DNA of 64,000 nucleotides from Schlesneria paludicola DSM 18645. GTDB lineage: Bacteria > Planctomycetota > Planctomycetia > Planctomycetales > Planctomycetaceae. The stretch covers positions 12,745 through 76,744 of the forward strand of contig CAMBQP010000001.1 in the NCBI GenBank assembly GCA_945869955.1, given 5' to 3'. Position 1 is the stretch's first letter. Each line of letters starts with the position of its first letter. The notes under the pieces were generated by a model. The model saw only the letters and a program-made list of their open reading frames with translations, was not told the origin of the DNA and searched no databases. The translations under genes and the position numbers were made by a program. Below, one piece after another: positions 25,350-37,856 of the stretch.

Positions 25350-27038
25350 ATGACTGACTCCGTAAAGATAAATCAAATTGCCGTTGCTTGTGCGTTTTTC
25401 GTCCTCCTGCAGCTTCAGGCTTTCGCCGCCGAAGGTCCGGTGGCACGCTGGAAACTGATGGGCGACACGAAGAACTCGGTGCCGTCGAGTCCCGACGGAG
25501 TGAATCATGGGGTCAAGCTGGCCGCAAAACAGGCCACGTTCGACGGGCTCGGCAGCCACATCACGGTTCCGGCTAACGATGTTTTGAAGCTGGGAAAAGA
25601 AGACTTCACGATTTCCGTATGGGTCGACTCCAACGGCATCACCGACGATGACCAGGGGGACATCCTGAGCCAGTTCGATCCGAAAACGCGGACCGGGTTT
25701 CATCTGAGCCTACGCAGCAATTCCGGCGTCACACATTGCCAGCCCAACGAGCGGCAATTGCAATTTGGTATCGACGCAGGGACCGAACCCCTCTTGACCG
25801 ACGAAGGTCGGCCAGGGAATTGCGTCTTTGGGCAGTCGATGGCCGTCAATGAGGGAACGCTGTACGTTGGCACCTGCGAGCCGGGAAGCGACCAGGCGGG
25901 GCATGTTTATCGTTATGACGGTCCGAACAACTGGATCGATCTCGGGACACCGGACAAAGCGAATAGTATCACGAGCATGGCTGCGTTTCATGGCGACTTG
26001 TACGTCGGCTCGGGAAAATACCGGCTGGGTGGTTCGAAGCTCTCTGAGTCAGAAAACCCGCACCTCGGTGGACGAATTTTTCAATGGGTCGATGGCCAAT
26101 GGAAAATGATCGGCCATTTTCCTGAGATGGAAGCAGTCGGCGGCATGGTTGGCTTTCGCGGAAAGCTCTACGTCAGTTCGCTCTATAAACCCGCTGCGTT
26201 TTTCCGGTATGACGGAGACGGGAAATGGACTCCGCTGGAAGTCCCGAACGGCAAACGGGTCGAAGCCCTGGGTGTCTTTAACGATTACCTTTGGGCGACA
26301 GGTTACGACGAAGGCCACGTCTATCGCTACGACGGCACGGAATGGACCGATCTCGGCAACGTCGGCGAAAAAGAGAATACGCAGACGTACGCCTTCTCGA
26401 CTTATCAAGGGGCGCTTCAAGTCGCCACATGGCGCACGGGCAAGGTATTTGCCTGGCAGGCACCCACTCCGGCAGCGGCGAAGGATGTTCTCGGCGGGCA
26501 TTGGCAAGATCGCGGCCGGTTGGGGGAAGAAATGGAAGTGATGGGAATGCTGGTCCACAACGGCAGTCTCTACGCTGGAACCTTACCATTGGCCCAAATG
26601 TATCGGTATGACGGAGGGAAAACATGGACCCCGATCAAACAGCTTGATACGACCGATGTCGAGTACCGCCGCGTCTGGACGATGGCCCAGCATCAAGGGA
26701 AACTGTTCGCCACCACGTTACCTTCCGGCCATGTCTGGTCGCTGCAGACCGGAACTGTCGTGACTTGGGACCAATGGAAGCAAGTGGCGAATCACGACCG
26801 GTTTCATCTCGTCGCGCAACGGCACGGTGACACGTTGCGGCTATTCGTCGGTGGAAAAATGGTTGCAGAATCGAAAACCGCAAGGACGAGCGAATTAGAT
26901 CTTTCCACCGATCACCCTTGGCAGATCGGTGCGGGGAGTGGCGATTTCTTCCACGGTTCGCTGGCCGACGTACAGATTTTCCGCCGCGCGTTGACCGCCG
27001 AGGAAATTCGAGTCCTGGGCCAGGCTACACGGGATTGA
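25350..27038 (+). CDS. Secreted protein with a split LamG/concanavalin-A-like domain enclosing a beta-propeller
   Basis: Signal peptide; LamG halves (ATFDGLGSHITVP...DFTISVWV and LFVGGK...WQIGAG...FFHGSLADVQIFRRALTAEEI) flank repeated GxLYVG...YRYDG blades. Confidence 0.8.
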   Translation: MTDSVKINQIAVACAFFVLLQLQAFAAEGPVARWKLMGDTKNSVPSSPDGVNHGVKLAAKQATFDGLGSHITVPANDVLKLGKEDFTISVWVDSNGITDDDQGDILSQFDPKTRTGFHLSLRSNSGVTHCQPNERQLQFGIDAGTEPLLTDEGRPGNCVFGQSMAVNEGTLYVGTCEPGSDQAGHVYRYDGPNNWIDLGTPDKANSITSMAAFHGDLYVGSGKYRLGGSKLSESENPHLGGRIFQWVDGQWKMIGHFPEMEAVGGMVGFRGKLYVSSLYKPAAFFRYDGDGKWTPLEVPNGKRVEALGVFNDYLWATGYDEGHVYRYDGTEWTDLGNVGEKENTQTYAFSTYQGALQVATWRTGKVFAWQAPTPAAAKDVLGGHWQDRGRLGEEMEVMGMLVHNGSLYAGTLPLAQMYRYDGGKTWTPIKQLDTTDVEYRRVWTMAQHQGKLFATTLPSGHVWSLQTGTVVTWDQWKQVANHDRFHLVAQRHGDTLRLFVGGKMVAESKTARTSELDLSTDHPWQIGAGSGDFFHGSLADVQIFRRALTAEEIRVLGQATRD

Positions 27039-27085
27039 GGCCGATCCCCGTTGAGCACTGTCCCTGTGTTCGCCACGTCTACTCG

Positions 27086-27371
27086 GCGAAAATGCCGGTA
27101 AGGCGATTTTAACGCAAAGACGCCAGGACGCAGGGACGCCAGGAATACGAAAACAGCAAATGGGATTTCGCCCTTCTCTCTTCCTCTTTCTTGCGTCTCT
27201 GCGGCTTGACGCCATTGCGTTAAATTTTCCGCTCATTTCCTGTGACCCAATCGTGGATCTATGAGGGCGATCTGATCGCGAAAAGGGGGTTGCGGATTTT
27301 GCATGGATCGGGATTTTCGCTTCTGCACAAAAATCGGTAAGTGAATTCCGGTTCGGAGAGATGGGCAAGAC
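27086..27371. repeat. Copy 1 of the hairpin-containing island repeat (core hairpin 27107-27225)
   Basis: Aligns by eye with 34761-35054 and 35719-35939. Left arm TTAACGCAAAGACGCCAGGACGCAGGGACGCCAGGA at 27109-27144; complementary right arm at 27188-27223. Confidence 0.95.
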
Positions 27372-27697
27372 TGTGGTTGAAGACGATTTCTTGGGTCAAG
27401 ACTTTCTGTGAGGATCTGGAGAATCCGAGTTGCTGAGCATCCGCGTCAAGAAGGACAAAAGTTCGATCAGAATCGGACTCATCAAGCTGCAGACGAGAAT
27501 TCGGCAGTGAGCGTGCGCGCGATGAGGGTCAAAGTGGCTCAACAGTTTTGGTGACCTTCCCACAGTAGCTCTCACGGCGTCAGCTCTTCCATCAGCCGTG
27601 CAGGCGGGGTTTCTGGAGTCTCTTGATGTTGAGGTTCCCGGACCGGATAATCCGGCGGCAGCGTTCTCTTGTAACGAACTGAAACAGGACTGGCCAC

Positions 27698-28756
27698 ATG
27701 GCAGCCGATCAGCATCTCATCGGGTACCCCGACGGGTTTTGCCTATTTGAGAGCGGGTCTCTTTTGCCGGAGGCATGGCAGTTGGCATCCGGTCAAGGGC
27801 CCGTTTGGATCTTTAATCCCGCCATCATCGAGGCCACGGACGGTTATTTGCTCGCTTATCGCGTCGTCCTACACGACGGTCGACGACAGATGGCAGTCTG
27901 CCGACTGGGCCGCAATCTTCAAGTCCGGCCCCAGTCCGCGATTCCACTGAGCGACTTTCTGGTTTTGCCTGCCGGGTGGTATCCGGAACAGGGGCGGAAT
28001 TGGTTTGCCGACCCCCGCTTGATTCGCTGGCAGGGCCGGCTGCTGGTCCACTGGAATTCCGGGATGCACAAGCCGGCGAATCACCAGTTTGTTCAAGAGC
28101 TGGATTCCGAAACACTGACCCCGATCGGAACTTCACGAGAATTGCGGCTGGTTGCCGGGCAGGCCCCAATCGAAAAGAACTGGGGCCTTTTCGGGTGGGG
28201 TGACGAGTTGTACGGTCTCTATTCGCCCGCCCCGCTTTGCATTATTCGACTGGAAAACGACGATGGTCGCATCTGGTCATTCGCCAAGGTGCAAACCCAT
28301 CACTCCCATCTCGCCGGTTATATCAAGCATTTCGGGGCGCTGCGCGGAGGATCGCCACCAGTCTTGCAGGGGGGGCAGCTCATCGCGTTTTGTCATTCTC
28401 AGTCTCAAACCTCGCAAGGAATTCGGTATCATCCCAGCGCGGTCAGGTTCGCTGGTCCTCCTGATTTCAAGCCCAACGCATACCTTGCCCAGCCGTTGGA
28501 GCTACCAAATCCGTTCGCGGATCGATTGATTCAGCCGCGGTTAAATCCACAGGTCGCTGAGGTTATCTATCCATCGGGAGCTGTCTTCGCGAAGGGACGT
28601 TGGCTGGTGAGTTATGGAATCAATGACGAGCATTGTGCGCTGATGACGTTCGATTCCTTCGAGCTTGATCGTCATTTGCGGCCAGCCAGAGGAGCCACGA
28701 GGGCGTGGATCGGATCAGTCCTTCGGCGAAACCTTCCCGGATGGTTTGCGGGCTGA
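27698..28756 (+). CDS. Five-bladed beta-propeller glycan enzyme (GH130/GT91-like fold)
   Basis: Motifs FNPAI, DPR, EKNW, LRGG, FCH, IYPSG and SYGIND; located in a glycosyltransferase cluster. The family call comes from motif memory only. Confidence 0.65.
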   Translation: MAADQHLIGYPDGFCLFESGSLLPEAWQLASGQGPVWIFNPAIIEATDGYLLAYRVVLHDGRRQMAVCRLGRNLQVRPQSAIPLSDFLVLPAGWYPEQGRNWFADPRLIRWQGRLLVHWNSGMHKPANHQFVQELDSETLTPIGTSRELRLVAGQAPIEKNWGLFGWGDELYGLYSPAPLCIIRLENDDGRIWSFAKVQTHHSHLAGYIKHFGALRGGSPPVLQGGQLIAFCHSQSQTSQGIRYHPSAVRFAGPPDFKPNAYLAQPLELPNPFADRLIQPRLNPQVAEVIYPSGAVFAKGRWLVSYGINDEHCALMTFDSFELDRHLRPARGATRAWIGSVLRRNLPGWFAG

Positions 28757-28990
28757 GATCTGCGGCGCCGGGAAACCCCAATCAATGCGGTCATCAATGT
28801 CGAATCGGACTCGCGAGCAGCGTTGGATGGCGGTTTCCCGCGAGACGGCATTGTTGGGAAACGGGAAGAGAGAAACGGAGATTCGCGTCGTCGTGACCAG
28901 AAAAACCGTTCACAGTCGGACTCGATCCCCTGCCCGTTTTCGCGATGGCCAAATTGAGCAACAGTTCAAGCGATACCGACAGCCACGCGG

Positions 28991-30109
28991 TCATTGTTCC
29001 GCAAACGCCGCCAACAGTTGCTGAATCACCTCGACCGGAGGGATTTCCGTGATACAGATCGGGGACGCATGCACGCACTTCCAGCCACATTCATAACAGT
29101 CGAGGGGGCGGTTTAACCATCTCTGTCGCGGGCTTTTCGACCAGGGGGCAACATTGCCGAAATTCCCCCCGCCAATCAGCACCACAATCGGTTGATCGAG
29201 TGCCGTCGCAATATGGGCTGGTCCCGATTCCGGCGCAAGCAGGATCCGTACTGAGGCGATTTCCTGAACCAAATCGGGAATTGTTGCAGGGAATCGCCAA
29301 GTGACCGAGTTCAGCCCCGCCGCTTCATTCGCGCAGTCCCATACACGGATGTCGGTGCCCGGGGGGACACAGAATTCGACCGGCATCGGATGTTGTGCAA
29401 TAAACCCCTGGATCACTGTCGCCAGCAGTTCAGGAGGGTATTGGCGAATTTCATCACTGGCTTGGGGACAGACCAGCAGTACGGTGCGAACCTCAGTGGC
29501 TCGTACCGTGAGTCGCGAATGGATTTGCTCAAGAGGGACCTCAAATCCCCGAACAGAGCTGACGACACGTCGGTGTGCTTCGAGCTCTTGACAGTGGCCA
29601 ATCAGGACTTCGGGATACGGAGACAAAACTGCGTCAGGAAAGGGGACCGCTGCCTTTCCGAGGTAGGATTCCTTTTTCTCGCAAGCATAACGGACTGAGG
29701 CGGGTAACAGTCGCATCATGGCATGCAGATAATCGGAGGGATGGTGTCGCAAACAGACGAGCTCATCACAGGAAAGGCCAGAAAAACGGGAATGGTACTT
29801 CCAGAGAAACGTGACAAATTCAGGCCAGAACGAAATACATGAGATGGGTAACACGAGGAAATCGGTGCGAGGGAACTCAGCCCGGTACAAAGATTCCGCA
29901 ATCGGCGAGATGACCAGCAATGACTGATCCTCACCCACGCGATCAATCAACAATCGAATCGCCCCAACCGCCAGCACGGCATCGCCAATTCGATCCATCT
30001 TGATGATCGCCAGGCGGTAGTGCTTTCTGCGGCGGCACAGGACTTGGTTCCACAAGAACGCAATCCTGATCAGTAGCCAATATTTCCAAGGCCCAATTTC
30101 CAGACTCAT
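28991..30109 (-). CDS. GT9 glycosyltransferase (ADP-heptose:LPS heptosyltransferase-like)
   Basis: IIKMDRIGDAV and ESGPAHIATAL motifs; the ATG at 30109 overlaps the upstream TGA (ATGA coupling). Confidence 0.88.
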   Translation of the reverse strand: MSLEIGPWKYWLLIRIAFLWNQVLCRRRKHYRLAIIKMDRIGDAVLAVGAIRLLIDRVGEDQSLLVISPIAESLYRAEFPRTDFLVLPISCISFWPEFVTFLWKYHSRFSGLSCDELVCLRHHPSDYLHAMMRLLPASVRYACEKKESYLGKAAVPFPDAVLSPYPEVLIGHCQELEAHRRVVSSVRGFEVPLEQIHSRLTVRATEVRTVLLVCPQASDEIRQYPPELLATVIQGFIAQHPMPVEFCVPPGTDIRVWDCANEAAGLNSVTWRFPATIPDLVQEIASVRILLAPESGPAHIATALDQPIVVLIGGGNFGNVAPWSKSPRQRWLNRPLDCYECGWKCVHASPICITEIPPVEVIQQLLAAFAEQ

Positions 30110-31287
30110 TCGATTTCTTTTCCTGCACTGACGGACGCCTCGGTCAGCCAATCTCTGACAGACGCCGCCGCGATTTCTGCGAGAGATTCGAGTCGATCAA
30201 GGGAAATCGTCGCGGCAGCGGAGACCCCCGAAATGATCTCGGAAACTTCGGAGACGCTGTTGACGCGTGGCAAACCGAATTGATCTGCCAAACCGGTCAA
30301 CTTGCCACTCCGGGCGACAATCAGAACTTTGGCACCGATCCAGACCGCCAAAAGTGCCCCGTGATAGCGGCTGCTGATCACCTTCGCAGGCCACTTTAAA
30401 AAGTCTACCGGACTTGTCGAACACGTCGACTCCCTATCAAGATTGAAAATCGTTAACCGCTGACGCAGGCTTTCAGAAAATCGCCGCCACCAGTCATTTT
30501 CCATACCTGGCAATAATCGGGGATCCTGTACCAACCAGAACGCTCGTTCCGCAGGAAGTCCCTGCATGAGCACCGGCAGGGCATCGATCACATTTTCTGT
30601 TGGCTTTTCAAAATTGAACAGGAAACCAATTGCGTGGGGATCGGGATTTCGTTCCTGTCCCGCGAATCGTTCCCGAAACAGAATATTCGCAAGATCGGCG
30701 GCGCTGGTCGTTCGTCCTGGATTTGCCTCGTCCAACCACTTTGCCGATCGTTCATCGCAAGCCCAACAATGCCGTACCGACATGAATGCCCGGCGGAATT
30801 GTGGTCGCTGCATGACGAACGAGTTTTCGACACCAATTCCCAAAAAATCCATCGGTTTGGCGAGCACCTGACACATGAACCACTCCTGATCCAATTGGCA
30901 TTCAAAAAATCGGCCGCTGTCCGTTTGGAAGGGGGTGCCACCCAGTCCGAGCCAGCAATCTGCCGATCGAATTGCGTTCCAACGCGCATCGATCGTATAG
31001 GGGAGCCAGGTGATTTCCGGATAGCGTTTGGCCAGCAATTCCCAATTTTCCGGTACACAACAGGTGAATCCCACCCTGCGTCGTTGACGGCCAATTTCTC
31101 GCAAAAATCCTAATAGCATGAAATCGTCACCGGCATTTCCGGCACCCCAGAATGCATGGCCGATGTGGACTTTTAAGGGGTGATTCCCCCTTCGTGCCGG
31201 TTGACGAAGGTGGTACGACATCAGTTGTCTGACGCGAATATTCAGCCGAAACCGCCAACGTTCAAGAATGGACTGCATGTTCAGCAC
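30106..31287 (-). CDS. Polysaccharide pyruvyl transferase family protein
   Basis: GAGNAGDDFML, GLGGTPFQ, GIGVE, ADLA, SSRYHG motifs; translationally coupled between the GT4 and GT9 genes. Confidence 0.8.
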   Translation of the reverse strand: MLNMQSILERWRFRLNIRVRQLMSYHLRQPARRGNHPLKVHIGHAFWGAGNAGDDFMLLGFLREIGRQRRRVGFTCCVPENWELLAKRYPEITWLPYTIDARWNAIRSADCWLGLGGTPFQTDSGRFFECQLDQEWFMCQVLAKPMDFLGIGVENSFVMQRPQFRRAFMSVRHCWACDERSAKWLDEANPGRTTSAADLANILFRERFAGQERNPDPHAIGFLFNFEKPTENVIDALPVLMQGLPAERAFWLVQDPRLLPGMENDWWRRFSESLRQRLTIFNLDRESTCSTSPVDFLKWPAKVISSRYHGALLAVWIGAKVLIVARSGKLTGLADQFGLPRVNSVSEVSEIISGVSAAATISLDRLESLAEIAAASVRDWLTEASVSAGKEIE

Positions 31288-32626
31288 CTTCGGTATCGGG
31301 CGTTTCCATCGACGGCGAATCCACGGATTCTGCGAGTACCCGACACTTTTGCAAAAATTGTCGGGTACTGTCTCGCCAACTGATGACGGCCGAAGGGTCC
31401 CAGTCGCTCACTGCAGCGAATGCCCCCGTTTGTTCACGATCGATGACGATCTGAGCGAGCGTTGAGGGGGAGCCAATGTCGAAATAGAGGCAGGATTCTC
31501 CCCCGACTTCGCGATGGACAGGGATATCACTGGCAAGCACTGGCAGACCGTTCCGGAGACCCTCGATCAGTGGTAAGCCAAATCCTTCGGCGTGCGAGGA
31601 AAAAACCAGTGCTCGTGCATGCTGGTAACAGTACGCCAGATCGGCATCGCTGGCGTTGGTGAGCAGATGCAGTTCATGTCCAAAACGGGGGTGATGATGG
31701 ATGCGATCTAACAGATCTCCACACAACCACCCCGGCCGACCGACGATGCAAAGGCGTGTTTGGGGACAACGGTCCCAGATCTGCTCAAAGGCATCCAGCA
31801 AATAGTTGTGGTTCTTGCGAGGTTCCAGTGTCCCCACTGATAAATACGGAGGGGGACCGGGGGTCTGGGCAAAGACTTGACGAGCGGAGTCGCTGATCTG
31901 GTCCGTGGAGGGGATACCCGAGGCGATCAAGTCGAGGTCCGAACCGAGCCGAAAGAAATCGATTTTGACCGCTTCACCCGCCCTATCTCCCAAGAGTTTC
32001 TTCGCGTACTTTCGCAATTCGTTTTGCACCGTTTGCGAGATCACCATCAGCACGTCGGCATGCTTCAAGTAATGGTCCAGGTATTGTTGAAAAATCGATG
32101 TCAGGCCACTGGGAAAAAACTGCGGATGGGTGATGGGGAGCAGGTCGTAAACGACAATTCCTGTTTGTGCTCTCTGTTGATGGGCTTGTTGCAACAACCT
32201 CCTCAGTGATGGAGTCCACCAGACATCCAGCGAAATGACCAGGTCATCCGACTGAAAATGAATCGCCGAACTCTGCCAGGCGAGCGATTCCTGCTCCACG
32301 ATCGAAGAGATCGATTGAAGGGTGCCACGTCGGAGGAATCGCAGAAGTCGTTTGAGCAAGCTGTTGCCGCTGTGAAACGATTCCAGCGTCCGGGTCACCG
32401 GTTTTTGCGGATTCCCTGCCTCAATACGCCGCTCCAATGCCGCCAGCCAGCGTGTACCATCGTAACAACGCCAGCGGTGTTTGATGATCGGAATGGATGT
32501 CACCCCCAGTTCGGCTCCGACGGCAATCGCTTGCCGAGCCAGATTCCGGGAAACGCGCTGGATTCCCGAGTTATTCCCCGAAACAAGCGTATTCCCACAT
32601 TCCAACAGGATTCGACCAACGTTCAT
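31262..32626 (-). CDS. GT4 (glycosyltransferase family 1 domain) protein, mannosyltransferase-like
   Basis: SGIQRV, VYDLLPITHPQFF, VGTLEPRKNH, EGFGLPLIE, ASDIPVHREV. Confidence 0.92.
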   Translation of the reverse strand: MNVGRILLECGNTLVSGNNSGIQRVSRNLARQAIAVGAELGVTSIPIIKHRWRCYDGTRWLAALERRIEAGNPQKPVTRTLESFHSGNSLLKRLLRFLRRGTLQSISSIVEQESLAWQSSAIHFQSDDLVISLDVWWTPSLRRLLQQAHQQRAQTGIVVYDLLPITHPQFFPSGLTSIFQQYLDHYLKHADVLMVISQTVQNELRKYAKKLLGDRAGEAVKIDFFRLGSDLDLIASGIPSTDQISDSARQVFAQTPGPPPYLSVGTLEPRKNHNYLLDAFEQIWDRCPQTRLCIVGRPGWLCGDLLDRIHHHPRFGHELHLLTNASDADLAYCYQHARALVFSSHAEGFGLPLIEGLRNGLPVLASDIPVHREVGGESCLYFDIGSPSTLAQIVIDREQTGAFAAVSDWDPSAVISWRDSTRQFLQKCRVLAESVDSPSMETPDTEGAEHAVHS

Positions 32627-33164
32627 GAAAGCCCTTGCCTCACGGAATTCGCGAAAAAAAAAGAATTCAATTGAAGAGGGGATTTTATAGGGCCAAGGGT
32701 GATGGCCGATATGGGCGTCCTCAACACCCCTGTTGGATGCCTTGCATCAATCGGAGTTTTACGGGGGGATCGCATCAAATTCAATGCAGGTCTTTTTTGC
32801 TGGGAATTGTTGGATTTCCGCAATCTTCTGGGCTTTTTGAAAAAAAGCGAAGGCAAAGAGAAGGCCATTCAATTCATGATGGGTGGTTGCTAACATGCCA
32901 CGCTGTGTTGTTGGATGAGCGTGGTTCGAAGTTCGGGTGTGTGATGTCTCTTGATGATACCGATTTTGGCATGCTTCAGAGGCGTGTCAATAATTTTTTG
33001 CGAGAATACGGCAACCAACAGGGATCAACGGTGCTCCGTCACCATCCGGAAGTTTTCGCCATCAAGTCGACCAACTACTGCAATCTTCGCTACCTGATGT
33101 GTCCTCGAGGCGAACCAGACATCATGGAGCATGATCTGGGAAATCTGCCCAAGGAACTCTTTCA

Positions 33165-33194
33165 AAAGATCCTCGGTGAAAGATCCTCGGTGAA
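33165..33194. repeat. Perfect 14-bp tandem duplication (AAAGATCCTCGGTG x2)
   Basis: Copies at 33165-33178 and 33179-33192, followed by AA. Confidence 0.9.
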
Positions 33195-33294
33195 GTCAAG
33201 TTTTTCTCAAATTCCGGCGGGTTCCACGGATTTGGTGGCCCGTTACCGTTCGACACGAACGAAGTGAAAACAATGGTTTTTGCGTCTTTGCCGT

Positions 33295-33326
33295 CAGTGG
33301 TCTGGCAAAACAGTGGTCTGGCAAAA
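33295..33326. repeat. Perfect 16-bp tandem duplication (CAGTGGTCTGGCAAAA x2)
   Basis: Copies at 33295-33310 and 33311-33326. Confidence 0.9.
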
Positions 33327-33406
33327 AGATTCCGCGATTCCCATAATTTTGCCTCAAACCCGTTTCTTTTGATGGAATCGGTTACAGCACAAGCAGGATT
33401 CCCCAA

Positions 33407-34513
33407 TTGATGAACAGGCCACTGCGGATCGGTATTGATGGTACGCTGTTTCGAGAGCAACCTCGGGGGCACTCGCTGTATGCCATGCAGCTGTTTCATG
33501 AGCTCCCCTCATTTCTCCCGGATGCCGAGTTTTTTCTCTACACCCCATCACCCATAGAGCTCACGAAGTTTCCCGGCAAGCTCACGCAACGGGTTGATTC
33601 AAGCTGGTTTGCGAAGTCCCCGGTTGTCTGGCAAAAACTGGCTGAAGGGAAGCTTTGCCGAGCCGATGCACTCGATGTCTTTTGGAGCCCTTATGTCTTT
33701 TTGCCGAAACTCCCTCGGGATCTTCCTACTGCTGTGACGCTCTACGATTTTGTGCATGAGGTGACACCCGATTCTTTCCATTGGCTGCATGCCCTCGCGT
33801 TTCGTCTGTTCTTCAAACGAGACCTGAAACGGGCTCAATCGATCATTACGATTTCGCGCGGAACACAACAGAGAATTCGTCAGCAATTTGGCCGTGAATC
33901 GATTGTCGTGCTGCCGGGGTTGGATGCGCGGTTCCAAAAGCCAACCGATGCACAACGGGCAGACGTTCTCCAAGAATATGGCCTTGATCGTCCCTACCTG
34001 CTGAATGTGGCGACATGGGATCCTCGTAAAAACGTCGCGACGCTGATCAAGGCCTTTTTGGCGATGAAAGAGGCGAATGAATTACCGGATTATCAATTGG
34101 TACTGGTCGGACGGAAAGAAAGCCGATTTGCCGAGATCGAGCAGTTGTTGCAGCGCGATGGCGGTCAGCACCTTCGGCACCTCGGGTACATCTCCGATGA
34201 TCACTTGCCGGCCCTGTACGGGGGAGCGAAGCTGTTTGTGTTTCCTTCGTTATACGAAGGGTACGGTATGCCCGCGATGGAGGCCCGCGCTTGCGGAACT
34301 CGCGTTGTGACCTCCGATCTCCCGGAAATCCGTGAAGCGGGGGGCGATGATTCAATTTACATCGAGCCAACCGCAGCAGGGATTCGGGCAGGAATCCTGG
34401 AAGGAATGGCTCGCAATTCACAAGGACCGCTCCCACTTCCTGTGGCTCCCAGTTGGCATCAAAGTGCCCGGATTCTCGCAGCTGAGCTTCAGCGTCTCGC
34501 GGGCCGTATTTGA
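33407..34513 (+). CDS. GT4 glycosyltransferase (mannosyltransferase-like)
   Basis: RIGIDG, TLYDF, VATWDPRKN, FPSLYEGYGMPAMEA, SDLPEIRE. Confidence 0.92.
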   Translation: MMNRPLRIGIDGTLFREQPRGHSLYAMQLFHELPSFLPDAEFFLYTPSPIELTKFPGKLTQRVDSSWFAKSPVVWQKLAEGKLCRADALDVFWSPYVFLPKLPRDLPTAVTLYDFVHEVTPDSFHWLHALAFRLFFKRDLKRAQSIITISRGTQQRIRQQFGRESIVVLPGLDARFQKPTDAQRADVLQEYGLDRPYLLNVATWDPRKNVATLIKAFLAMKEANELPDYQLVLVGRKESRFAEIEQLLQRDGGQHLRHLGYISDDHLPALYGGAKLFVFPSLYEGYGMPAMEARACGTRVVTSDLPEIREAGGDDSIYIEPTAAGIRAGILEGMARNSQGPLPLPVAPSWHQSARILAAELQRLAGRI

Positions 34514-34602
34514 GTTTGGTAGTAAGAATCAAAATGCTGTCAGGCACCCTGATCGACGAAAAAAAACAAGGGGAAAAACACGAGATACTGGAATGATTTT
34601 GG

Positions 34603-34624
34603 TTGGCCGATAGGGTACGGCCAA
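34603..34624 (+). terminator. 7-bp stem hairpin downstream of the GT4 gene
   Basis: TTGGCCG-N8-CGGCCAA; no clear U-tract. Confidence 0.3.
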
Positions 34625-34660
34625 TAACAGGTGTGTGCGGAGCGAAAGCCACTCAAGCAG

Positions 34661-35054
34661 CCGCGAAATCACACGTTTTTCGTGATTTCGCGGCCGGAAT
34701 TCACGAGAGAACGCGATGAAGTCGCAGCGACGACGACGACGTCCCGCCCCCCTCTTTGATAGCGAAAACGCCGGTAAGGCGATTTTAACGCAAAGACGCC
34801 AGGACGCAGGGACGCCAGGACTACCAAAACAGAAAATGGGATTTCGCCCTTCTCTCTTCCTCTTTTCTTGCGTCTCTGCGGCTTGGCGCCATTGCGTTAA
34901 ATTTTTCGCTCATTTCCTGCGACCTGATCGTCGATCCATGGGGGCGCGATCTGATCGTGAAAAGGGGGTTGCGGATTTTGAATGGGGCTGGCTCGATTTT
35001 CGCCTCCTCACCAAAATCGGTGGATGAATTCCGGTACGGAGAGAGGGGCAAGAC
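34661..35054. repeat. Copy 2 (longest) of the island repeat: 12-bp inverted repeat at 34661-34693 plus core hairpin 34783-34902
   Basis: CCGCGAAATCAC-N9-GTGATTTCGCGG; left arm 34785-34820, right arm 34865-34900. Its left flank is shared with copy 3 and its right flank with copy 1. Confidence 0.95.
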
Positions 35055-35265
35055 CAACACTCGTCAGGTTCGGGCCTTTATGCGCATTGCAATCAGGGCA
35101 GGCGAGAGCCAGGTTTTCCTCCACATCTTCACCCCCATGCTGCCTGGCGCGGATGTGTTCGATGTGAAACCAGAAAAATGCTGCTGCGGACTGCGGTAAC
35201 AAACAGTATTCGCATCGATTATTGGCTCTCTGCCGAACGAATTCGCGTAATGCGTTGTTCATCAT
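35008..35265 (-). pseudogene. HNH endonuclease, C-terminally truncated by repeat copy 2
   Basis: CEYC...HIEHI...ENLALACPDCNAHKG core in residues 1-70; the last 15 codons are read from the repeat, which begins at 35054. Confidence 0.8.
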
Positions 35266-35531
35266 TCGACCGCTTGTCGTTTCAGAGAGGCGCGCGCTTT
35301 TGATTGAAGGATCGTGACGAAGTGAAAGACCGATCGGTAGCTTTCGTATTCAACTTGTTCTTCCGCTGTGAGCAGGCCTTCGTTCGCTTGATCGGCCAAG
35401 TAATCCAAACGCAATTGCGCCGTTGGAGCAGATTGGAAACTGGCGACTCGCGCGGCAACTTCGGGCGTCAAGCATTCCATAAACGGGTCGAGAACACTGT
35501 TGGTGATTTCGAAGGCGGAGAGCGATGGCAT
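35262..35531 (-). CDS. Small acidic helical protein coupled to the HNH gene (putative antitoxin)
   Basis: 89 aa; AGGAAA SD; ATGA overlap with the HNH start; LDYLADQANEGLLTAEEQVEY resembles antitoxin-like partners of HNH toxins. Confidence 0.7.
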   Translation of the reverse strand: MPSLSAFEITNSVLDPFMECLTPEVAARVASFQSAPTAQLRLDYLADQANEGLLTAEEQVEYESYRSVFHFVTILQSKARASLKRQAVE

Positions 35532-35567
35532 GTCAGATTTCCTGCTAATGTAGACGATTCCTCCAGT

Positions 35568-35596
35568 ATTATGACCGCCGGGGAATCGAGAAACAA
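35568..35596 (-). promoter_or_regulatory. Possible sigma-70 promoter for the antitoxin-HNH pair
   Basis: Minus strand TTGTTT (35596-35591), 17-nt spacer, CATAAT (35573-35568); 37 bp upstream of the ATG at 35531. Confidence 0.35.
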
Positions 35597-35626
35597 CGGT
35601 CCGTTGCGAAAGCGCAACGCGAGTTT

Positions 35627-35939
35627 GAAATCATCTGTTTTTCGTGATTTCGCCGCCGGAAATCGCAAGAGGATGCGATGAAGTCGCAACGACGACCACG
35701 ACTCTTCGCGTCGTTGATAGCGAAAATGCCGGTGAGTCGATTTTAACGCAAAGACGCCAGGACGCAGGGACGCCAGGAATACCAAAACGGAAAACAGGGT
35801 TTTGTCTCTTCCTCGGATTCTTCCTTGAGTCCCTGAGGCTTGGCGACTTGGCGTTAAATTTTCCGCTCATTTCCTGTGACCCAATCGTGGATCCATAGGG
35901 GCGATCCGATCGCGAAAAAGGGGAATACGGATTTTGAAT
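35627..35939. repeat. Copy 3 of the island repeat (core hairpin 35741-35859)
   Basis: Left arm 35743-35778 is identical to copies 1 and 2; right arm 35822-35857 has diverged but is still complementary. Confidence 0.95.
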
Positions 35940-35954
35940 TGATGTGATGATGTC

Positions 35955-37085
35955 TCACGTGCCTCGCGGCGGCGATCTAAAGCCGCTGAATAGTTCTTGG
36001 ATCTCCACTCTGGATGGCGCGATCATTTTTTTGTCGTCTATCCAATAATGGAAATCTTGTTGAATGACGTGATATACGTTGGCGGAAACTCTGTAAATGT
36101 CCATGAGACATGAGTTGAATAGAAGGATGGCTTCGCACTTTCCATGCTTTTCAATGAGGGAAGCGAGTGCGATCTCATCGCCATTGTTGGATTCGCTGTG
36201 CAACAAACGGCCGCCATACATGAACATTTGAATGATTTGACGTCGCGTCGCGGTGGTTTCTTGAGCAAACACGGGCGGCGAGTCAATTAACTTAACGAAG
36301 ACGTCTCTCTCCCGTTCAATCTACAACCGCTTTAATTCCTCACCAGTGTGATCGAGGTAGGCGTCGCAGGCTTTCAGTAGTAGTTTGTCGCCGGCATGCA
36401 ATTGTCGAAAGTAAGCAAGAACGCAAAGTGTTTCCGCATCGTTCGGGAAAATCGCCTCAAGCAATTCTACTTCGCGGGTTTCTTGAGTAGCAGACGCGAT
36501 GGATTTCGGAGAGTCATACCATTCGCTGTGATAAATCCGACGCACCACATCGAGAAACTGAGAGATTGTATTTGCTTTTTTTAACGTCCATTCGGCTTCG
36601 TTTTTGGGAGACGTCGGCCCCAGTTGAATAACGCTTTTGGGATCGCCGAAAATGACCGTGAACTCCTGCCCGTTAACATGACGCATAATATCAATCATTG
36701 TCCATGGAGTTCCGGTTTCATCTTCGATGTAGCCGTACGGTGCGCTGAGGATGTGGAATCCAGTCTTTTGTTCAGTTGCATACGAATGAAATTGTTTTAG
36801 GTCATCGGTTGACGCTTCGACGAACGCGTGGCGGTATCCGATTAAATCAGATTTAAAGCTGGTTTTGCTTAAAGATATTGTTTTTACCGTTTCGTCAAAC
36901 CCACGTGGATGAAATCGAGAATCGTCAGCATTCAAGATTGACAAAACGTCAGCAATTTCGGTCGTCGAAAGCTTTTCCCAGTCTAGACAAAGATGACGAT
37001 TGAACAATGGAAGTGGATTTTCTTTTCGGCGGTCAAAACATTGAACCGCAAGTCGAACGTAGGGCAGATTTTTTGGAGTTGTCAT
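35955..37085 (-). pseudogene. AT-rich hypothetical gene interrupted by one in-frame TAG (36321-36323)
   Basis: ORFs 36321..37196 and 35955..36272 are in the same frame and joined by 16 open codons after the TAG (…EELKRL*IERERDVFVKLIDSPPVFAQ…); ATG at 37085. Confidence 0.75.
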
Positions 37086-37292
37086 CTGAATCAGATTCCA
37101 TTCGCTTAACTGGGACTCAAGTTTAGGCCATCCGGGAAGGCAAATTCGCCACGAACCAGTCCAGTACTTGATTGTTTTGCACTGTCGCAATCCCATTTTG
37201 AGTTGACTCTTTGCATGTCGAATTCATCAGACAAGAGAGGATTGTGAAGTTTTGTTATCCTTTCCATTGGAGACAAGGGGACACTAGAATTA

Positions 37293-37856
37293 TTGGCCCT
37301 GAATCCAGCGATCAGCATTTGCGTCCTGACCAAACCGATGTACTCGCGTGATCCACGTTTGCACTTGGATTTTCGGCTTCGCGATCCATCCGGATTGCTG
37401 CTGACAAACGATTTACAAATTCATCTTTTGCAGTTGTCAAAACTGAGCAAGACAGTGCAAAATGTGTCTCAGGCCAGTTCGATTGAGAAATGGGCCTATT
37501 TTCTGGTAAACGCCGCCAATCTGTCGTTGAATGGTATCGAGGGATTGTTTCCCGAAGCCGAATTCAGCGAAGCGGCAGGAGTCCTGGACATGATTTCACA
37601 TAACCCTGAACAACGGCAATTGTATGATGCACGCCTAAAGCTACAGCTCGACGAAGCCGCACGGCTGGAAGGGGCGCTCAATCAAGGCCGTGAGGAAGGC
37701 CGTGCGGAAGGGGAGTTGTTTGGGCAGATCATGCTGCTGCAAGAGCTTTTGGGTATCGCCGAGTTAACCAGGGACGAATTGACAAACCTCAGCGAAGTGC
37801 AATTGTCCGAAGTGACTGAGGAATTCAAGCGTCGGTTGAGAAATCGCAGCGTCTAA
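37293..37856 (+). pseudogene. 5'-truncated Rpn family (PD-(D/E)XK nuclease family transposase, PDDEXK_2) gene
   Basis: PAISICVL, LQIHLLQL, IEKWAYFL, LYDAR and the GREEGRAEG tail are present. The N-terminal catalytic region is absent: an in-frame TGA lies at 37245 and the upstream residues do not resemble the family. Confidence 0.8.

Follow-up and report, generated by a model that had tools for sequence, protein, structure and literature searches.

The HNH nuclease PtuB, known from the Septu and retron-Eco7 defence systems, carries a four-cysteine zinc site and a catalytic histidine in a ββα-metal core, and in the retron-Eco7 protein the HNH nuclease domain corresponds to residues 1-152, with an essential zinc finger (PMC12673091). 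The gene examined here lies in a 64,000-nt stretch of DNA from Schlesneria paludicola DSM 18645 (the "window", to which all unprefixed positions refer). Its intact allele (protein record P0152, 133 aa) exhibits the same zinc site and catalytic histidine in the same kind of core. The PADLOC PtuB HMMs cover residues 4-117 of this allele (E-value = 3 × 10-13), and its full-length structural model aligns only to PtuB chains: in a Foldseek search these alone match over more than 130 columns with a TM-score above 0.6 and an rmsd below 6 Å (8eea_G of Septu, TMq = 0.67; 9vhl_F of retron-Eco7, TMq = 0.65; 143-145 columns). Most other good fold matches are limited to the core of 60-85 residues, and the few longer ones have an rmsd above 6 Å. 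By sequence, no close solved structure was found for the family, only IscB/Cas9 HNH cores being matched.

The locus also departs from the PtuB systems in several respects. PtuB, which cleaves tRNA-Tyr in retron-Eco7, is about 210-230 aa long, against 133 aa here, and both its N-terminal extension and its PtuA-binding C-terminal domain are missing from the 133-aa protein. No PtuA ATPase adjoins the gene (there is no ATPase gene between 33407 and 37856), the partner being instead an 89-aa helical protein without any PtuA/AAA match. Finally, the window copy keeps only the first 70 residues of the intact allele, so that the extended PtuB-like homology exhibited by P0152 is lost in the 85-aa product.

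The gene resembles the pseudogenes that arise by illegitimate deletion in the accessory islands of bacteria: a blunt loss of the 3' half, a reading frame running on into non-coding DNA up to a chance stop codon, independent frameshift and missense lesions in sister alleles, and damaged neighbour genes. It differs from them in nothing essential, and is unusual only in that intact and deleted alleles are both available from environmental assemblies of the same species. We regard the locus as a pseudogene of a PtuB-like HNH family, produced by deletion in an accessory island that is itself decaying. That the 85-codon ORF of the window is the remnant left by a deletion in a 133-codon nuclease gene is, in our view, very highly probable.

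The HNH gene of the window and its relatives

The features of the locus are listed in Table 1. The 85-aa protein matches the Pfam HNH profile well above the cutoff (PF01844, residues 18-64, E-value = 1.1 × 10-11, 45.2 bits for a cutoff of 21.4) and, with both CxxC pairs and the H/N residues in place, has the features of an HNH endonuclease. All the invariant core columns of alignment A2 are retained (C18, C21, C56, C59, H34, E36, H37, N51 and N60). Residues 1-70 are 97% identical to the same residues of P0152. Codon 70 (GTT, V) occupies 35056-35058 and codon 71 (GGT, G) 35053-35055; the boundary 35054|35055 therefore falls within codon 71. Residues 71-85 (GLAPLSVPEFIHRFW) and the stop codon are repeat sequence, and this tail is aligned by no homolog, either from related genomes or from the phmmer search described below.

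Table 1. Features of the HNH locus and of the neighbouring repeats (window coordinates)
Feature	Position	Strand	Remarks
Repeat copy 1	27086..27391	+	Core B and extension R; similarity to undeleted copy 2 reaches 27391
Repeat copy 2	34665..35054	+	Modules: hairpin, palindrome core B, right extension R
HNH ORF, 85 aa	35008..35265	-	Pfam HNH PF01844 match
Non-homologous tail and stop codon	35008..35055	-	Codon 71 (spanning the junction) and 14 codons, from repeat copy 2
Deletion junction	35054..35055	.	Blunt, no filler, 304 nt absent relative to the intact allele
HNH codons 1-70, authentic coding part	35056..35265	-	Zinc site CxxC...CxxC and H-N-N catalytic core
Partner gene, 89 aa, all-helical	35262..35531	-	Stop codon overlaps the HNH start codon (ATGA)
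Repeat copy 3	35627..35939	+	Hairpin module and core B, without R; upstream of the partner/HNH operon

HNH homologs are present in 40 of the 41 related genomes, and the best of them align to query residues 1-75 from within longer reading frames, the alignments to the window protein ending at residue 69-75. At 11 related-genome loci the HNH ORFs are 128-139 aa long, the exceptions being one degenerate ORF of 116 aa and one of 170 aa with an over-extended start; relatives of the window gene are mostly of 132-133 aa. The motif LF(H/N)PR..W..HF....G.T..GR.T, with which the relatives at these loci continue, is missing from the window protein. A phmmer search of 1.8 billion representative sequences yielded 3,166 matches, the best 150 of which all end by residue 82, nearly all by residue 69-75; 132 aa is the commonest length among the matches in the 90%-identity database. 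In the GTDB species genomes, the best 80 of 406 matches (chiefly Planctomycetota, with some Acidobacteriota and Verrucomicrobiota) all reach at least query residue 116, most of them 124-133. No remnant of the HNH C-terminus was detected in the 6.25-Mb assembly by tblastn with 10 homolog C-termini (best E-value = 0.005, chance level).

The gene is accordingly truncated, as the initial annotation of this DNA had proposed, and the related-genome, phmmer and GTDB lengths dispose of the possibility that its close homologs are naturally 70-85 aa long. The initial annotation was equally right in describing the zinc and HNH core as intact. It had further described such proteins as continuing for about 70 residues, typically from DP.TG: the length is close (about 60 residues past query residue 69-73, where homologs cease to align), and the observed form is (I/V)D..T....LF.PR...W..HF.

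A gene similar to the partner lies upstream of the HNH homologs at 10 of the 11 related-genome loci, and immediately upstream of the HNH gene at 60 of the 80 loci represented by the best GTDB matches, in Planctomycetota, Acidobacteriota and Verrucomicrobiota. Its reading frame is open in all 13 haplotypes examined. The AF2 model of the partner consists of four helices (pLDDT 91.8). It matches no Pfam, NCBIfam or PADLOC family and has no significant relative by sequence or fold, the nearest being a weak match to the YnzC/UPF0291 helical hairpin (E-value = 4 × 10-4 over 30 residues; E-value about 1 for the YnzC/UPF0291-like match by Foldseek). This pairing of a PtuB-like HNH protein with the 89-aa partner is a common, uncharacterised module that may deserve an investigation of its own.

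The intact allele and the 304-nt deletion

The initial annotation had named relatives as a possible source of an intact allele. Metagenome contigs of this species, collinear with the window and 98-99.7% identical to it, do have an intact 133-aa HNH gene at the corresponding position (contigs L032, L023 and L033-L035; protein records P0152, P0278, P0281 and P0285). The 7.9-kb contig L032 is collinear with window positions 37240-29838 at 98.1-99.7% identity, with the single exception of 304 extra nt (L032:2187-2490) placed exactly between window positions 35055 and 35054. L028-L031 and L033-L035 exhibit the identical 304-nt difference between the identical two bases, and L023, the contig encoding P0152, is 98.5% identical to window positions 35800-35055 and divergent beyond. 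All nine contigs with an intact 3' end lose their similarity to the window exactly at 35055|35054; the single-nucleotide junction pointed out in the initial annotation is a real rearrangement breakpoint.

The missing 304 nt consist of 191 nt of coding sequence, beginning with two bases of codon 71 and running through codons 72-133 to the end of the stop codon, and of 113 nt of 3' spacer. Relative to L032 and the eight other contigs they form one contiguous segment, as in a deletion pseudogene. Comparison with the intact locus reveals zero microhomology and no filler at the junction, and at the left end of the deletion the sequence is unrelated coding DNA that has no motif in common with the right end. 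The event is an ordinary 304-nt deletion ending within the neighbouring repeat. A 7-nt direct repeat (GTCTTGC) begins at the right breakpoint, its partner lying 20 nt within the deleted segment, and a 9-nt inverted repeat is found close to the junction. Both were considered as a cause of the junction and rejected: they may well have arisen by chance, and neither would lead one to expect the junction where it is found.

The course of events is best explained as follows. In gene orientation, the ancestral order, which is still extant in the species, is partner gene, HNH gene, 113-nt spacer and repeat copy 2. One illegitimate, blunt-ended deletion of 304 nt took 191 nt of coding sequence, from the last two nucleotides of codon 71 to the end of the stop codon, together with the spacer and the outermost 20-42 nt or so of repeat copy 2. 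The coding sequence was thus fused at codon 70/71 to the interior of the repeat, of which translation now reads 15 codons up to a chance stop. Repeat copy 2 was a bystander, with no insertion involved.

Identical deletion junctions are found in four independent metagenome contigs (L024, L036, L037 and L038), and at least 10 distinct protein variants share the same repeat-derived tail. The junction is therefore not an assembly artefact, its support in the window assembly being these identical junctions in other assemblies. The deleted and intact forms coexist with alleles broken in other ways, the allele forms being counted within two 90% clusters. P0275 and P0282 exhibit a 1-nt deletion equivalent to position 35193, which destroys the first CxxC and leaves the 3' end intact; P0271 and P0272 carry another frameshift; P0287 is a truncated allele with a change of a zinc ligand (C18R); and P0273 combines the frameshift with the 304-nt deletion. 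All four combinations of the frameshift and the 304-nt deletion are present. Among the truncated alleles, 6 of the 15 tail positions are variable and one allele stops three residues early; residues 1-70 vary less, at 7 of 70 positions. Codon variants within residues 1-70, counted over all haplotypes with truncated and intact alleles together, amount to five non-synonymous and two synonymous. With different lesions in its other alleles, the gene is decaying.

The base at position 35058 is G (Val70) in all five deletion haplotypes and A (Ile70) in all nine haplotypes with an intact 3' end; the more distant HNH homologs have Val at residue 70. Since G is present in every deletion haplotype, a single origin on a haplotype of the ancestral type is most likely. 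The deletion allele is found on several haplotype backgrounds, which, together with the four combinations above, shows that recombination is frequent in the population. It is also found in lineages with flanks of only 86-93% identity to the window. Its presence on these backgrounds requires either recombination or recurrence, and recurrence at a blunt junction would be odd. A three-taxon comparison of the window, L023 and L024, which is unrootable, agrees with a deletion that occurred only one time. We thus infer a probable single origin on a haplotype carrying the ancestral Val70, from which the deletion would then have spread through homologous recombination.

Fate of the truncated nuclease

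The deletion removes 17 C-terminal residues that are conserved in alignment A2: six invariant (F81, P83, R84, G106, N116 and R124) and the others near-invariant (W88, H91, F92, G101, R107, A108, T109, L112, L113, R120 and L127). AF2 predicts the 133-aa protein as one compact model (pLDDT 94.7, pTM 0.88), in which the strands and helices of residues 68-129 run on from the core. By comparison with retron-Eco7 PtuB, the lost region corresponds to part of the nuclease domain rather than to a detachable appendage. Loss of conserved residues and signs of relaxed constraint, as seen in deletion pseudogenes, are both evident here, from the 17 residues, the frameshifts and the C18R change. Because the conserved residues and about half of the fold are lost, and because other alleles carry extra lesions, we infer that the 85-aa product is probably inactive or unstable and that the gene segregates in the population as a pseudogene. 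It is unlikely that the shortened nuclease still works, as the initial annotation had suggested it might. The intact core residues and the low variation of the core may reflect some residual constraint or function in the remnant.

It is possible, if rather doubtful, that the partner/HNH pair is an uncharacterised toxin-antitoxin-like or defence module of two genes, widespread in Planctomycetota, Acidobacteriota and Verrucomicrobiota, in which a PtuB-like nuclease is held by its 89-aa helical partner. The nuclease would then be undergoing repeated knock-out in one wild species (at least four independent lesions) with the partner left intact, and the deletion allele would have moved between lineages by recombination. 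If this is true, the old deletion allele would point to selection against the nuclease in its active form, or to a defence gene under balancing selection.

Less probable still, the deletion being real, is that selection has kept its 85-aa product, either as a functional minimal HNH nuclease or as a fragment with a dominant-negative or regulatory role. HNH domains of about 80-100 aa do exist on their own (e.g. the Gme HNH structure 4h9d), and such a role would agree with the intact zinc and catalytic residues, with an ORF that is open in at least 10 variants, with a partner gene that is intact across all haplotypes, and with a core that is less polymorphic than the tail. These points are outweighed by the loss of the 17 strongly conserved C-terminal residues and, if the model is correct, of about half of one compact fold. 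The truncated alleles moreover gather further damage (C18R, an added frameshift, a shortened tail), and in residues 1-70, all haplotypes pooled, non-synonymous variants outnumber synonymous ones (five against two). Decay after deletion accordingly remains our preferred interpretation of the remnant.

The repeats and the surrounding island

The three nearby repeat copies are all in one orientation. In copy 2 the hairpin module lies at about 34646-34740, core B at about 34762-34905 and R at 34966-35054; the next gene ends at 34513, leaving only about 150 nt between it and this copy. Over 325 nt, copies 2 and 3 have 80.6% identity, and the left-hand hairpin module is common to both. Copies 1 and 2 (27086-27371 and 34762-35054) are 88.7% identical over 293 nt (E-value about 10-103), and in the window both terminate in GGGCAAGAC, the next bases being T... 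(27372) and C... (35055). As the initial annotation had stated, correctly in every particular, the similarity of these two copies ends at 27371 and 35054, inside codon 71 of the HNH ORF, so that the repeat supplies the stop codon together with the final 15 residues. An apparent 107-nt deletion in copy 3 of L034 proved to be a scaffold gap of Ns and was discarded.

The intact locus indicates what this end represents. Copy 2 is already present there downstream of the HNH stop codon (L032, L023 and L033-L035), and it passes GGGCAAGAC by 20 nt when compared with copy 1, and by about 42 nt when compared with a copy in the sister species (genome G014). L032:2471-2783 matches window positions 27391-27086 (88.5% identity over 313 nt). 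The sequence starting with GTCTTGCC (the reverse complement of GGCAAGAC) resumes at L032:2491, and before this point 20 nt are homologous to 27372-27391 and about 42 nt to the G014 copy. The similarity between copies 1 and 2 of the window thus ends at GGGCAAGAC because the deletion took the rest of copy 2. The initial annotation had taken GGGCAAGAC for the end of the repeat; it is internal to the undeleted repeat, and is an endpoint of the deletion only. Extension R is found only in copies 1 and 2 of the window genome (and once in G014), and copies 1 and 2 both originally extended beyond this point.

Core B is a long imperfect palindrome with inverted arms of about 32-36 nt and a folding energy of -60.8 kcal/mol. 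About 20-25 copies of it exist in the window genome and 29 matches in G014, and the palindrome arms are matched in 17 of the 33 related genomes searched. No Rfam family was detected in 26000-37000 at an E-value of 1 or below, and no repeat match near the HNH module was found at the 11 related-genome loci, the repeats thus being no part of the module in these relatives. With its long imperfect palindrome, its modular mosaic flanks and its tens of copies per genome, the repeat is akin to the REP/BIME-like or MITE-like palindromic repeats. Unlike these, it gives no indication of recent movement: copy 1 and all three of the other core copies tested occupy orthologous positions in G014, in collinear alignments of 91-95% identity. 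Copies at orthologous sites in the sister species imply that the repeat is old and passive. The initial annotation had read the breakpoint as a sign of an active repeat, which the orthologous copies and the presence of copy 2 in the intact allele do not support. In comparison with the REP/BIME/MITE-like elements, the repeat here is a substrate of homologous recombination and an endpoint of deletion rather than an insertion.

An origin of the junction other than by ordinary deletion has to be considered in three forms. The first, which we regard as very improbable, is that the repeat end is a site-specific recombination site or a cassette boundary, at which a recombinase truncated the HNH gene, possibly repeatedly. 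The deletion allele does occur on several haplotypes and in diverged lineages, and other rearrangements of the island also end in or beside repeats (in L024, L037 and L028-L031, and at 27390). The endpoints, however, all lie at different positions of the repeat (35054, 34821/34822 and about 27390, besides one crossover within the core), and such scatter speaks against a site-specific mechanism; an integron-like fixed recombination point was not found, the four island rearrangements using four repeat positions. The unrelated coding sequence at the left end of the deletion, the internal location of GGGCAAGAC in the undeleted repeat, and the association of the deletion with G at 35058 in all five DNA haplotypes, which fits one origin, stand against it as well. 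Finally, the hybrid of copies 1 and 2 described below switches gradually from one set of diagnostic sites to the other, as in ordinary homologous recombination.

The second form, to be given even less credit, is the insertion of an active MITE-like repeat that split the HNH gene. It would account for a dispersed element with a long palindrome and inverted arms, and for a similarity between copies 1 and 2 that ends inside the HNH gene. It is in practice refuted by the intact allele of L032, where the same repeat occupies the same place downstream of the stop codon, and is at odds with the nature of the difference between the alleles, which is a loss of 304 nt rather than a gain. The remainder of the gene is found neither beyond the repeat nor elsewhere in the genome, the copies tested are orthologous in G014, and the R extension is confined to copies 1 and 2, both of which originally ran past GGGCAAGAC. 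An empty-site allele, with an intact HNH gene and no repeat, was not found: in each of the five fully intact alleles, and of the four frameshift alleles whose 3' end is intact, the repeat lies 113 nt (spacer included) beyond the HNH stop codon. The third form, an assembly chimera made at the repeat, might be thought of in a 394-contig draft genome with three repeats of about 300 nt at the locus, but can be dismissed almost entirely, since the identical junction recurs in L024, L036, L037 and L038, from different samples and assemblers, and in further protein records, and since a chimeric switch would be expected within the shared repeat sequence rather than at its edge.

Several other structural differences were observed around the locus. 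In L024:1-2445 and L037:1-984 (window positions 27086-35054), nothing but a single hybrid repeat separates the LamG-domain gene from the truncated HNH gene. The left part of this repeat resembles copy 1 and the right part copy 2, and both contigs lack the 7.7-kb glycan gene cluster that lies between the two copies. This structure fits homologous recombination between two direct repeats, or the reverse, a Campbell-type insertion. Over 20 kb, L028-L031 share 99% identity with the window, but 2.56 kb are missing from them (32259-34821; L028:10690-10705). The lost segment takes in the left half of copy 2, the GT4 gene at 33407-34513, the ORF at 32635-33267 and the 5' end of the GT gene at 31262-32626; on its right side this deletion stops exactly where the left palindrome arm of copy 2 ends. 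In G014 (L014, G014:C407:4188-7475), window positions 27391-37295 (9.9 kb, from copy 1 to the PDDEXK_2 gene) are replaced by about 1 kb of unrelated sequence, the breakpoint between the species being located at about 27390, just after copy 1.

Neighbouring genes exhibit damage of their own. The PDDEXK_2/Rpn-like gene is full-length in G014; in the window it is 5'-truncated and matches only profile positions 106-228, the N-terminal 105 profile positions being absent. A 376-codon neighbour gene of unknown function contains an in-frame amber TAG at 36321-36323, where L028 and L036 have TGG (Trp) and L038 also encodes Trp; the TAG is accordingly a window-specific nonsense change or a sequencing error.

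The intergenic regions here are mosaics of several repeat families. L039:1884-3200 (G000:C86:4283-5599) is a separate multi-copy element of about 1.3 kb with more than 40 matches in G014 at 78-93% identity; it is probably an insertion sequence or belongs to a different large repeat family, and has no relation to the repeat of the HNH locus. L023:214-300, which lies upstream of the intact locus, is one more short dispersed repeat (about 87 nt), recurring with 77-81% identity at eight or more sites of the window genome (C86, C82, C11, C374, C329, C282, C96 and C125).

The population data show passive recombination and deletion at repeats. The breakpoint in the HNH gene is real, yet it gives no evidence for a mobile repeat or a cassette boundary, and readings of the region as a repeat-driven cassette array should not rely on it. 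The gene is best read as an ordinary deletion pseudogene. The repeats of about 300 nt are shown to be passive substrates for the recombination that removes the 7.7-kb glycan gene cluster, and at this locus a single species provides a clean natural case of a defence-type nuclease gene in different degrees of decay, with intact, deleted, frameshifted and doubly damaged alleles side by side.
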